In this document: positions 5,792-41,459 of the stretch, piece by piece
How positions within the stretch are numbered: the first letter of the stretch is position 1
Layout of the letters: every line of letters begins with the position of its first letter
Assembly (NCBI GenBank): GCA_965238175.1
Contig: CBDEGZ010000003.1
Location: forward strand, 1,184,001-1,248,000
Origin: Gammaproteobacteria bacterium
GTDB lineage: Bacteria; Pseudomonadota; Gammaproteobacteria; CAJXQU01
Direction: 5' to 3'
DNA length: 64,000 bases
Notes under the pieces: generated by a model
Databases searched by the model: none
The model's input: only the letters and a program-made list of their open reading frames with translations
Told to the model about the DNA's origin: nothing
Made by a program: the position numbers and the translations under genes

Positions 5792-7017
5792 TGTAGAAAT
5801 TCAGACTTGATCTGACAGTTACCCCTTTTTCTGTAACTGACTGTCAGGTTAAGTTTAGTTCACAAACTTTTCCTTCCAGATAGCTTGTCCGTCGATGAGT
5901 GTTTCCATCGGCGTCCTCCCGCAGCACATTTTGCCTTGGTGAGTTCGTTGAGTATTGTATTTGAGCAACCATTCGTCAAGGTCGAGTTGCAGTTCATCAA
6001 TCGATTGGTAAATTTTCTTACGCAAAGCGACTTGATAAAACTCATTGAGGATCGTCTTATGGAATCGCTCACAAATACCATTCGTCTGAGGTGATTTGAC
6101 CTTGGTTTTGGTGTGTTCGATATTGTTCAACGCCATATAAAGCTGATAATCATGCTGGTCAGCTCGCCCACAATACTCCGTCCCTCTATCTGTCAAAATG
6201 CGCAACATAGGCAAACGTTGTTGTTCGTAGAATGGGAGGACGCGGTCATTGAGCATGTCAGCTGCCGTAATCGGTGTTTTAGTCGGGTACAGTTTCGCGT
6301 GAGCGACCTTGCTGTAAGTATCAACAAACGTTTGTTGATAAACCCGACCAATGCCTTTGAAAGTACCGACATAGTAAGTATCTTGCGAGCCAAGATAACC
6401 AGGGTGTGCCGTCTCTATCTCGCCACAAGCCTCATCGTCGTCTTTCTTGCGTTCCATCGCCGCGACTTGAGACTCAGTGAGGATCAAGCCTTCACCAGCT
6501 ACCTTATCAGACAATGCCTTCAGGCGATCTTTAAAGCAAGCAAGACCATGACGAAGCCAGATACAACGAACGCCACTGGGTGAGACAAATGTTCCCCGTT
6601 TGCGCAGCTCGTTACTGGTGCGCGTTTGACCATGTGCGGGCTCTTCCAGTGCATACTCGAGCACAACGGTTTCAATAGCCGGGTCGATTCTGTTTTTAAG
6701 ATTTGGGGTACGCCGATTACGATCAAACAAGGCTTCTACACCGCCTTCATCAGCCGCTTCTTTGTAGCGATAAAATGTATCTCTGGACAAACCCATCATC
6801 TTGCAGGCTTTTGAGACATTGCCGAGTTCTTCAGCGAGATTGAGTAGACCAACTTTATGTTTTATAACTTTGTCATTAGTATGAATCATGAGAGTTACCT
6901 CTTTGTGTTTTGATGTTTACGTTGCAGTTACATCAAAGCGGGTAACTCTCACTAAATCAAGCGTCGCTACGCTCCGCTTGATTTAGTGATGTGTCAGATT
7001 GGGTCTAAACTTCTACA
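5792..7017 (-). mobile_element. IS481-family insertion sequence, complete
   Basis: TGT...ACA ends; 26-bp imperfect IRs TGTAGAAATTCAGACTTGATCTGACA and revcomp TGTAGAAGTTTAGACCCAATCTGACA; direct repeat GATAAAC at 5785-5791 and 7018-7024. Confidence 0.93.
5855..6889 (-). CDS. IS481-family transposase
   Basis: KHKVGLLNLAEELGNVSKACK HTH; DDE core QDT...TDRGTEY...NGICERFHKT. Confidence 0.95.
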   Translation of the reverse strand: MIHTNDKVIKHKVGLLNLAEELGNVSKACKMMGLSRDTFYRYKEAADEGGVEALFDRNRRTPNLKNRIDPAIETVVLEYALEEPAHGQTRTSNELRKRGTFVSPSGVRCIWLRHGLACFKDRLKALSDKVAGEGLILTESQVAAMERKKDDDEACGEIETAHPGYLGSQDTYYVGTFKGIGRVYQQTFVDTYSKVAHAKLYPTKTPITAADMLNDRVLPFYEQQRLPMLRILTDRGTEYCGRADQHDYQLYMALNNIEHTKTKVKSPQTNGICERFHKTILNEFYQVALRKKIYQSIDELQLDLDEWLLKYNTQRTHQGKMCCGRTPMETLIDGQAIWKEKFVN

Positions 7018-36777: not shown

Positions 36778-37389
36778 ATGAAGTTCACAGCCAAAGGATT
36801 GATATTAATCGTCTCATCGATGGTTACATTTTCTGCACAAGCAACGGTCTACAGTTTTTCCTCGGAGTTTAAAAATCGCGCAATGGAAACTTATTCCACA
36901 TCTTGGAATACGGATAGTGATGTCCTTAGTCTGACTTCCAAATTTAATAATAGTCGCGGAAAAGTAGATAATATTCGATTTACGTTGACCGATGGTGCTG
37001 TGCCAAATAGAGCTAAGCAATACTTCACATACAACTTGGATTTAGTAAACAACAAAGTAAGTGTTAGAGATTATTGGAATGGCGGAAAAGAAATCGCTGC
37101 CTTTGAGAATATTATTGATATTAAACAAGGTGAATTTTCCTTGAACCTTGACCATACTGGCTTTGACAAAAAGTATAACGTCGGTTTCGGAGATAAACTT
37201 GGTATTTGGCATTTTGTTCATAGTAAGGGTAAAAAGATAGACCAAGTAGATCAAAGTAATGTGAGAACCACTAAAGTAGATCTTCCACCGGTATCTCCGA
37301 CTAGTGTATCAGAGCCCAGTACGATGGCATTAATGGGTTTAGGATTGTTAGGATTGATAGCTAGCCGTAGAAAGTTCGCTAAGAAATAA
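36778..37389 (+). CDS. PEP-CTERM-type (VSEP variant) surface protein, paralog A
   Basis: Start re-assigned to MKFTAK (GGAGA RBS); signal peptide ending AQA; C-terminal VSEPSTMALMGLGLLGLIASRRK. Confidence 0.88.
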   Translation: MKFTAKGLILIVSSMVTFSAQATVYSFSSEFKNRAMETYSTSWNTDSDVLSLTSKFNNSRGKVDNIRFTLTDGAVPNRAKQYFTYNLDLVNNKVSVRDYWNGGKEIAAFENIIDIKQGEFSLNLDHTGFDKKYNVGFGDKLGIWHFVHSKGKKIDQVDQSNVRTTKVDLPPVSPTSVSEPSTMALMGLGLLGLIASRRKFAKK

Positions 37390-37445
37390 GCTAAACAAAC
37401 CTAATGCGAAGGCTATAATCAGCAGAAGCTTTCATTTAAATTTAC

Positions 37446-37476
37446 AAAAAAGCCGAAGTTTATCTTCGGCTTTTTT
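37446..37476 (+). terminator. Rho-independent terminator
   Basis: AAAAAAGCCGAAG-tttat-CTTCGGCTTTTTT. Confidence 0.88.
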
Positions 37477-37579
37477 GATTAAGAAATAGAGACTTTAACT
37501 ACCCCCAACTCATGACAAGAAACTGAACTAAAAGCCCGCTCTTTGTTCAGATCAATTGAGACCTAAACAACAGACGAAC

Positions 37580-38102
37580 TGTTTGTATGGTTTCAACTAC
37601 ACCTCACCAACCATCAAGGGAATATTTTAGCCACCAAAATCGCAACTGGTAATGTCGAGGATTGTCAGCCTGATCCTGAACTCTGCGAGAGGACGACCGG
37701 CAAACTTTACAGGGATAAAAGCTACACCAGTAACGCTTTATCCAACAATTTATTTGATGAAGACGTTGAACTGGTCATCCATGTTTGGAAAAACAGGAAA
37801 GCAAAAGTCACTTCACTCTGGGTCGGTAATTGCTCCTGCATTACCAAAACTCCCCCTTCCATGGTAGTCAGACAGAGCTATGCTGAATCGGTGTTTTGTT
37901 ATTGAAAGATCAATGGCCAATTGAAAAAGATGACTCAGACAGAACACTCAAAACACCACTCTGCGCATGGTTTATATTGTTGAATCTTGTCGGTTGATTG
38001 CTTACTGTCTTAAAAATGAAGCCTTTTTTGGAAATTATCGAGTGATGATTTTGAGTGTTTGAAACAGGCGTTAGTGACTGTGGCTTAAAACGCTCTCGAG
38101 TT
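37580..38102 (+). pseudogene. Degenerate IS982-family transposase remnant
   Basis: Broken frames give YGF..LHL..NHQGNILATKIATGNVED, GKLYRDKSY (compare GKLYGDKGY), INGQLK..TEHSKHHS, LIAYCLK. Confidence 0.75.
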
Positions 38103-38332
38103 AACTAAAATGGACTGAGTATTTTAACCTGAACTTGGGATGAAAACGACAATAAAAACCCTAAAATACAATGAGTTATATGAAAACGCGGTGACTGTTT
38201 TGTCCAGCAGGCTTCTTTTCGTGGCTATTTTAAGGCGGAGTTGCGTAGTAATAGTGGGCTATTGGAAACAACTCCAACGTATAGAGGCGCTAAAAGAAGT
38301 CTGCTGGATGGGTGTTTATTATCCCGAGTTCA

Positions 38333-39677
38333 TATATGGTCTCCTCCCGTATTGCAAGATAAAACATTCAGATAACAGGGACAGGATTGCTGTCATATAT
38401 ACGGCCTTCAATGAAGTTTTCAACTTCTGACCTGGATGTATTACGCGCCTATTTTCCTTATCAGGTTATCGGTATTAGTTACCCCTGAGCTCGACAGGTT
38501 TTCAATAGGCTGGTTTGACCTGTTATGCCATCTTTAGTTTTACCTTCGCAATTCGTTGAAATGATTTGTTCTCTCTATTTAGGCCGGTGAGTAGTCATCA
38601 CCAGAAACCGTTATAGCCCAGGCCATTCTTGCCATTTTGTTGGCATACGCCACACACGCTCGATTATGCCCCCGCGTCTCAACTAAACGATTAATCCATT
38701 GACTCAGTTTATCGCCTTTCGTTTTGGCTCTTGATACCACGGCCTTCGCGCCTAGAATTAACAAACAACGAAGGTATTTATTGCCGCGTTTACTGATCCC
38801 CAGTAGCACCTCTTTACCACCACTACTGTACTGTCGTGGAACAAGTCCTAATGAGGCGGACACATCGCGCCCTTTGTGATAATGAGCGCCGTTTCCCACT
38901 TCATTAAAATACGCGCTCGAGACCATCGGCCCAAACCCTGGAATAGTTTGTAAGCGTTGGCAAATCGCATTGTTTTTTGCCGATTGAATGATCAATTGGT
39001 CAAATGTCGCAATACAGGCATCAAGTGATTGCCATTGTTCCTTTAGCTGGCGCAGTATCCTTTTGAAAGTAACGGACAACCGTTCGTTCTCATCACTTAA
39101 TAGCAACGGGATAGATTGACGTAGGGTATTTAGGCCGGGACGAAGGCTAATGCCATATTCTGCAACAAGCGCTCTCATTTGGTTACATAATGCGGTTCTT
39201 TGTCTGACCGCTAAGTCTCTTGCTTTATGTTGTGCCTGGTTGTCTTGTTGCTCAACTGATTTAATGCCCACACTTTTTAAATGAGGTTGTTTCGCAGCAA
39301 CGGCGATGGCCAAGGCATCGTTATAATCATTCTTATTGCCGATTAGAAATGCGTTAACATGCTGAGGTGGTAGTAATTTCACCTGATGTCCCTGTTGTTG
39401 TATCGCTCGGGCCCAATACTGTGACGTTGCACAAGATTCTATTGCGACTAAACAAGGAGGTTGAGATTGAAAAAAGGAGAGTACCTGCGCTCGCTTTAAC
39501 ATTTTCTTTTTGATTATACGCCCTTGTTGATTACAGCAGACAGCATGAAATACGTTTTTTGCTATGTCTAACCCGATTGTTGTAGTCTTCATTTTGGTCT
39601 TCTCCTCTTTTGATTGTGTGTATGTCAGTTCAATCATGGCACCTAGATGCCGTTAGGGGGAGGAGACCATCACATCA
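38333..39677 (-). mobile_element. IS110-family, IS1111-group element, copy 2
   Basis: Reverse complement of 10146-11490 with identical translated transposase; same sub-terminal IRs and same target AACC|TG|AACTCGGGATAA. Confidence 0.92.
38579..39592 (-). CDS. IS110-family DEDD recombinase/transposase
   Basis: Protein identical to 10231-11244. Confidence 0.95.
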   Translation of the reverse strand: MKTTTIGLDIAKNVFHAVCCNQQGRIIKKKMLKRAQVLSFFQSQPPCLVAIESCATSQYWARAIQQQGHQVKLLPPQHVNAFLIGNKNDYNDALAIAVAAKQPHLKSVGIKSVEQQDNQAQHKARDLAVRQRTALCNQMRALVAEYGISLRPGLNTLRQSIPLLLSDENERLSVTFKRILRQLKEQWQSLDACIATFDQLIIQSAKNNAICQRLQTIPGFGPMVSSAYFNEVGNGAHYHKGRDVSASLGLVPRQYSSGGKEVLLGISKRGNKYLRCLLILGAKAVVSRAKTKGDKLSQWINRLVETRGHNRACVAYANKMARMAWAITVSGDDYSPA

Positions 39678-39885
39678 GGTTATTGTTAGATACATTGTGC
39701 ATAAAACTGTGTCAAAGTGACAGAACAATGTCACAAATTATAAACTAAGAGGTCTTGCTATTTACTTACGTCAATTATTCATTAACTATGGGCACGTATA
39801 TTGGGTTCCTGAACTGGACGTTTGATAAAGAACCACAGATAAAGGATTATCAATTTTTACTATAACAATTATAAGGAGATACAAC

Positions 39886-40509
39886 ATGAAATTCACAGCC
39901 AAAAAATTAGTTCCCGCTATTGTTTTAACCGTAGCATCAACCATCACATTTTCAGCACAAGCGACTATTTATAGTTTCTCAAAAACAGTTACTGGCAAGG
40001 CGATAGAAACTTTTTCGACTTCCTGGAATACTCAAAATAATGTTCTCAAACTATCATCAAGCTTCAATAGTAATAAAGGATATATTGACAGGTACTCCTT
40101 TGTTTTGACAGGTGGTGGTGGCCCTCGCGGAGCAGAGGAATATTTCAACTATAATTTAGATTTGGTGAGCAACCGTGTAACTGTCACTGACTATCGTGAC
40201 CAGACTAACATATTAGCGACATTTGATAATATTATCGATATTAAACAAGGTAGCTTTTCAGTGAGTCTTGATCATACGGGTGCTGGTAACAATTACAATA
40301 TTGGATATGGAGAAGACATTGGTATTTGGAACTTTTTGCATAGTGGTGGTAGGTTGGTAGATCAGCTTGATGTCCATAGTGCAAAAACTACTGCGACACA
40401 ATCACCTACTCCTGGTACTGGCGTATCTGTATCAGAGCCGGGCACATTAGCATTAATGGGCTTAGGATTGTTAGGGATGGTTAGCCGTAGGAAGTTGGCT
40501 AAGAAATAA
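39886..40509 (+). CDS. PEP-CTERM-type (VSEP variant) surface protein, paralog B
   Basis: MKFTAKKL signal peptide; VSEPGTLALMGLGLLGMVSRRK tail; homologous to A and C. Confidence 0.9.
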   Translation: MKFTAKKLVPAIVLTVASTITFSAQATIYSFSKTVTGKAIETFSTSWNTQNNVLKLSSSFNSNKGYIDRYSFVLTGGGGPRGAEEYFNYNLDLVSNRVTVTDYRDQTNILATFDNIIDIKQGSFSVSLDHTGAGNNYNIGYGEDIGIWNFLHSGGRLVDQLDVHSAKTTATQSPTPGTGVSVSEPGTLALMGLGLLGMVSRRKLAKK

Positions 40510-40535
40510 GAATAAGTCATTTTAATTTGACACTC

Positions 40536-40565
40536 AAAGCCGAAGTTAATCTTCGGCTTTTTTTT
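40536..40565 (+). terminator. Rho-independent terminator
   Basis: AAAGCCGAAG-ttaat-CTTCGGCTTTTTTTT. Confidence 0.88.
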
Positions 40566-40793
40566 GTTCAAGGGATAGAGTTTCAGACTTTACTTAAAAC
40601 GAACTGAGTATTTTAGATACACTGCGCATAGAATTGTGTCAAAGTGACAGAAGAATGTCACAAATTATAAATTAAAAGGCCTTGCTATTTACTTACGTCA
40701 ATTATTCATTATTATAGACACATACATCGGGTTCCTGAACCGGACGTTCAGTTGATAAAGGATTATCAATTTTTACTTATAAGGAGATACAGT

Positions 40794-41459
40794 ATGAAAT
40801 TCACAGCTAAAAAGTTAGTTCCTGCCATTATTTTAACCGTAGCATCGACCATCGCATTTTCAGCACAAGCGGCATTACTTCCTGATCATGATGTTTATAG
40901 TTACTCAACTTCCTTTAACAATCGCGCAACAGAAAGCTTTTCCACGTCTTGGAATACAGCCACTAATGTACTTAGTCTTTCTTCCATGTTTAATAATGAT
41001 TATGGCAAAGTGGATAATATCCGATTTACGTTGACTGATGGCGCCGCGCCAGATCGCGCCAGGCAATACTTCTCATACAATCTGGATTTAGTAAACAACA
41101 AAGTTACTGTTGGAGATCTTTGGAATGGCGGAAAAGAAATTGCGTCTTTTGATAATATTATCGATATTAAAGACGGTAAACTGTCATTAAAACTTGATCA
41201 TTCTAGTTTTGACAAAAAGTATAATGTTGGTTTTGGAAACAATCTTGGTGTCTGGCATTATGTGTACAGTAAAGGTAAACAAATAGATCAATTGGATCTG
41301 AATAATGTTGGAACCAGGGTAGACCGCGTAATAGTAGATCCGCCAGCGGTGATAGAACCACCTGTTACCGGCGTATCTGTATCAGAGCCGGGCACATTAG
41401 CATTAATGGGCTTAGGATTGTTAGGGATGGTTGGCCGTAGGAAGTTAACTAAGAAATAA
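40794..41459 (+). CDS. PEP-CTERM-type (VSEP variant) surface protein, paralog C
   Basis: Start re-assigned to ATG 40794 (AAGGAGA RBS); VSEPGTLALMGLGLLGMVGRRK tail. Confidence 0.9.
   Translation: MKFTAKKLVPAIILTVASTIAFSAQAALLPDHDVYSYSTSFNNRATESFSTSWNTATNVLSLSSMFNNDYGKVDNIRFTLTDGAAPDRARQYFSYNLDLVNNKVTVGDLWNGGKEIASFDNIIDIKDGKLSLKLDHSSFDKKYNVGFGNNLGVWHYVYSKGKQIDQLDLNNVGTRVDRVIVDPPAVIEPPVTGVSVSEPGTLALMGLGLLGMVGRRKLTKK

Follow-up and report, generated by a model that had tools for sequence, protein, structure and literature searches.

An IS1111-family element with a predicted guide RNA for the outer tips of IS982-family ends

How does one insertion sequence come to lie at a fixed base inside the terminal inverted repeat (IR) of another mobile element? 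The question is raised by a 64,000-nt window of a gammaproteobacterial genome (G000:C3:1184001-1248000, G000 being the source genome), in which an IS1111-family element interrupts a short non-coding element upstream of a PEP-CTERM gene. "The window" below means this whole stretch; plain positions are those of the window, and positions prefixed C3 are those of the contig. From the comparison of sequences, we consider it very probable that the IS1111 element is guided to integrated IS982-family ends, at their outer tip, by an RNA encoded in its own 3' non-coding region.

The nested insertion in the window

The IS1111 element (Table 1) was present in the source genome in 25 copies at 99.9-100% identity, one of them cut by a contig start, and its ends were fixed by the 24 copies with two flanks. 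The subterminal IRs matched at 13/13 positions and were followed by the 7-bp left and 3-bp right extensions found in the IS1111 family, in which these IRs are 11-13 bp long. The recombinase, for whose gene a longer ORF starts at 39637, matched PF01548 and PF02371 in a Pfam profile search and scored 302.9 bits against NF033542 (cut-off 140); its motifs, including the C-terminal SG motif, were located, and its length fits the IS1111 range of 330-350 aa. Insertion was into a specific target, in a single orientation and with no duplication, and an intact empty copy of the host MITE exists (C3:2509896-2510106, with a 6-bp duplication). The window element has every IS1111 feature that can be checked in sequence, and the membership proposed in the first-pass annotation holds on its DEDD recombinase, IRs, 3' non-coding region and NF033542 score above the cut-off.

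Table 1. Coordinates of the nested insertion, its predicted guides and its surroundings in the window
Feature	Position	Strand	Remarks
Decayed IS982 with internal deletion	37502..38101	+	own 6-bp duplication at 37496-37501 and 38102-38107
Left copy of MITE target duplication, 7 bp	38120..38126	+
IS982-type MITE, body and left IR	38127..38332	+	left IR 38127-38144; most of right IR 38318-38332
IS1111-family insertion sequence	38333..39677	-	1345 bp, no target duplication
Right subterminal IR, 13 bp	38336..38348	+	3-bp terminal extension at 38333-38335
3' non-coding region, predicted seek/bridge RNA	38349..38578	-	230 bp, downstream of recombinase gene
Candidate left donor guide	38393..38400	-	8/8 with right-end/left-end circle junction
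Candidate right donor guide	38434..38440	-	5/7 complementary to IS left end; conserved column
Left target guide	38462..38468	-	TAACC plus core TG; host's terminal ACC plus 2 bp of host duplication
Right target guide	38486..38494	-	complement of top strand; reads target +1..+8 as TGAGCTCG; covariation
DEDD recombinase gene	38579..39592	-	337 aa from ATG with ribosome-binding site
Left subterminal IR, 13 bp	39658..39670	-	7-bp terminal extension at 39671-39677
Last 3 bp of MITE right IR, displaced by IS	39678..39680	+
Right copy of MITE target duplication, one extra base	39681..39688	+
PEP-CTERM gene, downstream of insertion	39886..40509	+	PF07589
Paralogous empty site, upstream of third PEP-CTERM gene	40604..40620	+	repeats and alignment

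A DNA search of 60 related genomes gave no full-length close copy of the element and partial matches in 6. Older related left-end fragments lie at C3:2357911-2358383, 1154716-1154798, 2897431-2897503 and 1393274-1393339; they showed 79-100% identity over 40-391 bp, which suggests an earlier wave of the same IS1111 lineage. In run X2, which may be the source sample, the IS contig had a depth of 139 vs 6 for the flank, a ratio compatible with a high copy number. The circle joint and the empty allele were absent from the assembled read contigs, a neutral result because contigs drop rare forms.

The insertion was located 3 bp inside the right IR of a 209-bp MITE. Removal of the IS rebuilds the inverted partner of the IR at 38127 (38318-38332 joined to 39678-39680), as the first-pass annotation had read it. 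Eight other long relatives in the source genome showed 80-87% identity over 168-211 bp; the family, with 9 long copies of 207-211 bp, has TAnnTA duplications in five other copies. With these relatives and a match to an IS982 end, the segment is neither single-copy nor bounded by a motif unrelated to IS ends. The IR and duplication type common to both suggest that the MITE was probably mobilised in trans by IS982 transposase. A 96-aa ORF (38140-38430) spanning the MITE into the IS end had no Pfam match. The pre-MITE site proposed earlier was borne out in part: a single TATTTTA stands in the paralogue at 40604-40620, but the window duplication is imperfect, reading TATTTTA on the left and TATTGTTA, one base more, on the right.

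The IS982 remnant noted previously beside the MITE is present (PF13612, E 1.4e-19, with an internal stop; 67-69% identity to intact copies), but as a separate insertion that ends 25 bp before the MITE. That the MITE is part of this remnant was ruled out, each having its own duplication, which is TAACTA in the remnant. The IS interrupts the MITE and so cannot predate it, in line with the order of MITE first and IS second that had been deduced. IS copies are at least 99.9% identical, vs 80-87% for the MITE and 67-69% between the remnant and intact IS982; the IS burst is therefore the latest event. The relative order of the remnant and the MITE is suggested only by their decay. None of the 5 same-genus genomes searched yielded an orthologous empty locus.

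Three tandem PEP-CTERM paralogues lie within 36778-41459 (the other two at 36778-37389 and 40794-41459). All three matched PF07589 and have a common upstream block and a common terminator-like hairpin; the region of the second gene had no match in five same-genus genomes. Between the insertion and the start of the next PEP-CTERM gene lie about 205 bp, and the upstream block that this gene has in common with the paralogue, from 39686, is intact, so that any effect of the insertion on the gene is probably incidental. No sign of a role for the gene in the insertion mechanism was found.

IS982 hosts and occupied ends in the source genome

PF13612 gave four full-length matches and two broken elements in the source genome, and the two IS982 proteins tested against NF033520 scored 279.6 and 271.2 bits (cut-off 130). 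These elements measured 1005-1044 bp, with 6-7-bp duplications in two of three that were capped, i.e., occupied at an end by the IS1111 element. In length, AC termini and direct repeats they agree with the family description of about 1 kb, IRs with 5' AC ends and variable direct repeats, as given in the available text of PMC7335449. The IS982 at C3:1090210 carries a full transposase, and its left end is identical to the MITE-family consensus repeat, confirming the IS982 assignment of the first-pass annotation; this left end is interrupted by the same IS1111 at the same base. Among 52 IR-like ends in the genome, TA stood directly outside in 40 and TAnnTA in 29.

Some variants of these hosts were seen. 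Two IS982 transposases (C3:1090300-1091235 and C3:526648-527583) have a 39-bp (13-aa) in-frame insertion near the N-terminus relative to other copies. A 27-bp collapsed element at C3:393939-395310 consists of two fused IS982-type ends, one capped, with flanks that are inverted, not direct, copies. A second, longer non-coding family with IS982-type ends was found at C3:1506522-1507016 and C3:1195490; one of its ends is capped though the flank is without the T of TA.

All 24 copies with both flanks were inserted at AACC^TGA (caret, insertion point) in one orientation, and 23/24 at TAACC^TGA. IS982-type ends held 20/24 of them (16 intact ends, 3 truncated by IS481 and 1 in a collapsed mini-element); among the remaining 4/24, the copy at C3:3074123 is ambiguous and three are not in IS982 ends. 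The 25th copy, at the contig start, has a flank with the same 6-bp duplication as the MITE at C3:3331937 and is therefore probably in that MITE's second end.

The genome-wide count of occupied and empty sites that the first-pass annotation had called for gave 16/26 occupied among IR-like ends with AACCTGA and 0/26 among those without (Fisher p 1e-6), where the latter 26 include some chance matches and one probably capped end later cut by IS481. Its other proposal, a comparison with intact IS982 IRs, gave the same picture: in five near-complete IS982 elements, ACCTGA ends were occupied in 3/3 cases and other ends in 0/7. Ten of the 26 matching IR-like ends were still empty. At sites with a perfect TAACCTGA, occupancy by number of further guide mismatches was 9/13 (0-1), 7/16 (2), 5/23 (3) and 1/59 (4); among sites listed with any mismatch in TAACCTGA it was 1/4571.

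Three ACC^TGAAC-TGT sites were considered as a separate target family and rejected, being MITE ends cut by an IS481 copy. The IS481-family element occurs in the window at 5792-7017 (1226 bp, NF033577 above cut-off) and in 57 full copies in G000:C3. A 7-bp duplication was found in 39/57 of these, and flanks were unmatched in 16; several of the unmatched flanks pair reciprocally, therefore indicating rearrangements between copies. The same IS481-truncated junction occurred three times with different TAnnTA flanks, each time capped (C3:1050196-1054153; C3:1390022 with C3:2865990; C3:945276). The first of these places is a MITE with IS481 in place of its interior and both ends capped by IS1111. 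At C3:589238 an IS1111 copy lies in the TAACCTGA of an IS481-derived fragment; the IS481 left end contains TAACCTGA, and the same site in full IS481 copies was unused.

The predicted guide RNA and competing explanations

The 230-bp region had a folding z-score of -3.38, with 0/200 shuffles as stable, and its RNA scaffold was conserved in relatives; Rfam gave only sub-threshold matches, none of them in the non-coding region. From 159 related loci and the window element, 99 loci with flanks on both sides and legible guides were obtained; they contain 81 distinct guide pairs. Over these 81 pairs, guide and target agreed at 9.28 of 11 non-core positions vs 3.79 when shuffled (maximum of 4.73 in 10000 shuffles), a test that is inflated by relatedness and was made on very diverse targets. 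In a column scan of 76 guide pairs, both segments emerged again, together with a base that follows the right guide and pairs with target -1. The core base of the left donor guide covaried with the core (0.95 vs 0.50 expected). The order of the guides, with the top-strand complement 5' of the bottom-strand match, is that of the IS1111 seekRNAs described in the available part of PMC11187229.

Together the two target guides spell TAACC^TGAGCTCG, including the TA of the host target duplication. The left guide reads the TA of the TAnnTA duplication and so matches IS982 ends that are integrated. The combined guide has one mismatch to the MITE/left-end type TGAACTCG and one to the IS982 right-end type TGAGATCG; the right guide has C at +4, where 19/24 targets would need U. 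The sole perfect 13-mer site in the genome was empty, and the other end of that mini-element was occupied.

Going by family members as described in the available parts of PMC11187229 and PMC11208160, the IS1111 element would be excised as a circle, a promoter (TTGCAA-17-TATGAT) would be assembled across the circle junction, and strand exchange guided by the RNA would take place at the TG core. A -35/-10 pair of that sequence does form across the modelled right-end/left-end junction. Insertion also brought the IS right end next to MITE sequence at the 38333 junction in the window, and the two together make up TTGCAA-17-TATGAA, which may serve as a minus-strand promoter directed outward, into the MITE. 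IS982 and MITE ends would offer a renewable, mostly intergenic and neutral safe harbour. Capping would shift host IR positions 7-18 by 1345 bp inward, a displacement that probably keeps the host element from moving for as long as the IS stays in place. The outermost 6 bp of the host end (ACCTGA) are supplied anew by the left end of the IS, and the host end would be rebuilt if the IS excised precisely. The three identical truncated junctions with different duplications, all capped, suggest that a capped or nearly IR-less unit may have moved. For immobilisation of the host we go no further than inferring it, because the outer ACCTGA is restored, excision would be precise and the three truncated junctions are capped.

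Two insertions at non-IS982 sites with a good match to the guide, and the 4/24 copies outside clear ends, could mean that the guide specifies no more than a short, loose motif and that IS982 ends predominate because genic insertions were purged, the element not being tuned to IS982. Purging, however, shapes the positions of surviving copies and not the spelling of the guide. The 13-nt guide matches IS982-type ends in 23/27 members of the clade, follows the end variants (L012) and in several lineages has come back to the same end by way of the opposite strand, and we regard a merely loose motif as very unlikely. More improbable still is that the capped ends are copies of a few capped units, made by IS982 transposase carriage or gene conversion and not by independent targeting. 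The three identical IS481-truncated ends, which have different duplications and are capped despite 3 guide mismatches, would agree with such copying, as would two identical IS982 copies capped at the same end. Against it, left as well as right ends are capped, the host elements concerned are of several kinds, and unrelated genomes show insertion in the same register; copying would explain few sites at most.

A second determinant in the IS982 end, either the MITE fold or the distal IR, might supplement pairing, which would add to the guide and not replace it. Sites with TAACCTGA were occupied in 15/23 cases with a distal IR and in 8/195 without, a fold of the MITE into a long hairpin can bring its IRs together, and a target stem-loop is reported, in the portion of the source available, for ISPpu10. 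Guide positions +4..+8, however, account for much of the gap between 15/23 and 8/195, selection against genic insertions yields the same pattern, and ends with no partner within 4 kb, as well as 1-kb IS982 elements, were also occupied. Such a supplement is possible but on the unlikely side. The recognition of IS982 tips by the guide RNA is the reading followed below.

Relatives of opposite polarity and known systems

Close relatives (59-79% identity) occupied IS982-type ends in other genera. L019 was found in the right end of a full IS982, and L013, L017, L236, L246, L248, L252, L254, L255 and L257 in MITEs with 6-bp TAnnTA duplications; L011, L012, L237, L244, L245, L249, L251 and L256 lie at an IS982-like end whose partner is absent from the flank, their host being judged by sequence. 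The L012 guide reads GAGATCG, the right-end type. A tree was built with 27 ingroup rows, excluding repeat copies within one genome, partial loci without the non-coding region and the degraded or duplicate rows L018, L020, L037, L039, L162, L163, L237, L238 and L239. Guides for IS982-type ends were carried by 23/27 (18 forward and 5 reverse) and guides for other targets by 4/27.

The reverse guides (L011, L157, L235, L242 and L243; e.g., CGAGC^TGAGGTTA) correspond on the other strand to ACC(T/C)CA IS982 ends, cut between IR positions 6 and 7; these are the ends left empty by the forward type in the source genome (0/7). L242 was found within a 228-bp element whose repeats read ACCCCA. Forward guides would fit ACC-TG-A ends and reverse guides ACC-(T/C)-CA ends, where a TG core would be available on the opposite strand at a shift of one base, the lineage tracking the end variant of its host. 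The reverse elements required at least 5 changes on the tree, and a single clade was rejected (p-AU 3e-64, LG+G4); a mixture-model tree also separated L157 from L011. The clade includes recombinase pairs 91-92% identical with opposite-polarity guides for the same host end. Free ends were counted as TG:CA, giving 3:26, 1:8, 13:7 and 4:3 in four reverse-element genomes, 23:0, 16:2 and 8:2 in three forward-element genomes, 19:7 in G000 after removal of the IS copies and 26:9 in G167, which holds both types; G367 (0:0) was excluded. The CA share was higher in all four reverse genomes than in all four forward genomes (p 0.014, from a small sample with non-independent kin).

Transfer of the whole non-coding region among reverse types was disfavoured, the nearest RNA scaffold outside the loop being that of a forward element for 4/5 reverse elements. 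A simple DNA inversion of the guide loop was rejected as the source of the reverse type; when the loops were aligned, the guides seen were not those that reverse complementation would produce. Each of the five reverse elements had a different hairpin between its guides. L014, L015, L016 and L160 have non-IS982 guides, yet keep the forward-type inter-guide hairpin that is changed in all five reverse elements. One reading, which we think doubtful, is that guide slots exchange 5-nt segments, beyond slow point mutation, so that polarity flips and IS982 ends in which a single base change has removed the TG core are recaptured. By such an exchange, a forward RTG [CGAGC or CGATC]TCA with LTG [TAACC]TGA could become RTG [TAACC]TCA with LTG [CGAGC or CGATC]TGA, and the process could be intramolecular or templated by target DNA. 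The reverse pattern is also the geometric outcome of any selection for that IS982 end, and guide loops could have been moved between co-resident relatives by gene conversion, G167 holding both types. If true, segment exchange would let a chase between parasite and host, played out by two IS families, be tracked, and would offer a natural way into the question of how bridge/seek RNAs gain new guides.

Other targets were seen among more distant relatives. L044-L047, L049-L051 and L055 (52-54%) are inserted at TCATC^CGGAAAC, which in L049 is the IR bounding a short element, making this another end-targeting lineage. In L040, L053, L080, L211 and L231 the right guides read (C/T)GGGTTAAT, i.e., TAACCC on the other strand, and L040 was found within a 120-bp element whose repeats are imperfect. 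Many relatives at 50-58% (in L024-L090 and L165-L234) lie in REP-like palindromes starting GTAGG, so the clade has been retargeted among REPs and several IS/MITE ends.

The source genome is a clean natural dataset: it holds all 25 copies, sites both filled and unfilled, and controls only one base apart. With it and the 91-92% recombinase pairs, both the natural rewriting of guides and a possible suppression of one IS family by another through capped ends become directly testable.

As far as the available text goes, IS4321/IS5075 enter the terminal repeats of the Tn21 family (PMC8269217) and resemble the window element in being IS1111 elements at one position in another element's terminal repeat, in the safe-harbour logic and in occasional insertion at look-alike sites. 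The window element differs in its target, which is an 18-bp IS982 end and MITEs and not a Tn21-family repeat, and in a guide that extends into the host target duplication. The best plasmid-borne IS110 proteins, which may not include IS4321, were only 45-46% identical to its recombinase. Subterminal IRs, 7/3-bp extensions, a downstream non-coding region and the guide order are common to the seekRNA elements ISEc11, ISKpn4, ISPst6 and ISPa11 in the part of PMC11187229 available. The same text describes natural guide replacement among ~70%-identical relatives (ISEc11/ISXne4), there toward a different or modified target, whereas the window clade returns to the same host end with opposite polarity. 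ISEc21 of the IS110 group is likewise an RNA-guided IS aimed at another IS family; unlike the window element, it has its own non-coding region upstream and targets DDE codons of IS3-family transposases, which are coding sequence and not an end. The IS621 bridge RNA also has separate target and donor guides around a 2-bp core, but IS621 belongs to the IS110 group, carries its RNA in the left end and targets REPs (available part of PMC11208160).

The main text of the IS982 review PMC7335449 has 0 occurrences of IS110, IS1111 or MITE, and "IS982" is absent from the main text and six searchable supplements of PMC11187229. A literature search at the level of titles and abstract openings found no report of IS110/IS1111 elements in IS982 ends or of polarity-flipped guides. 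Insertion of IS1111 elements into the ends of other elements (IS4321/IS5075 in Tn21 ends) and natural guide redirection are already known. What appears to be new is the IS982 target, the guide that reaches into the host duplication and the repeated switch of polarity in step with a one-base end variant; IS982 ends thereby join the few mobile-element ends that serve as targets of RNA-guided IS1111 elements.
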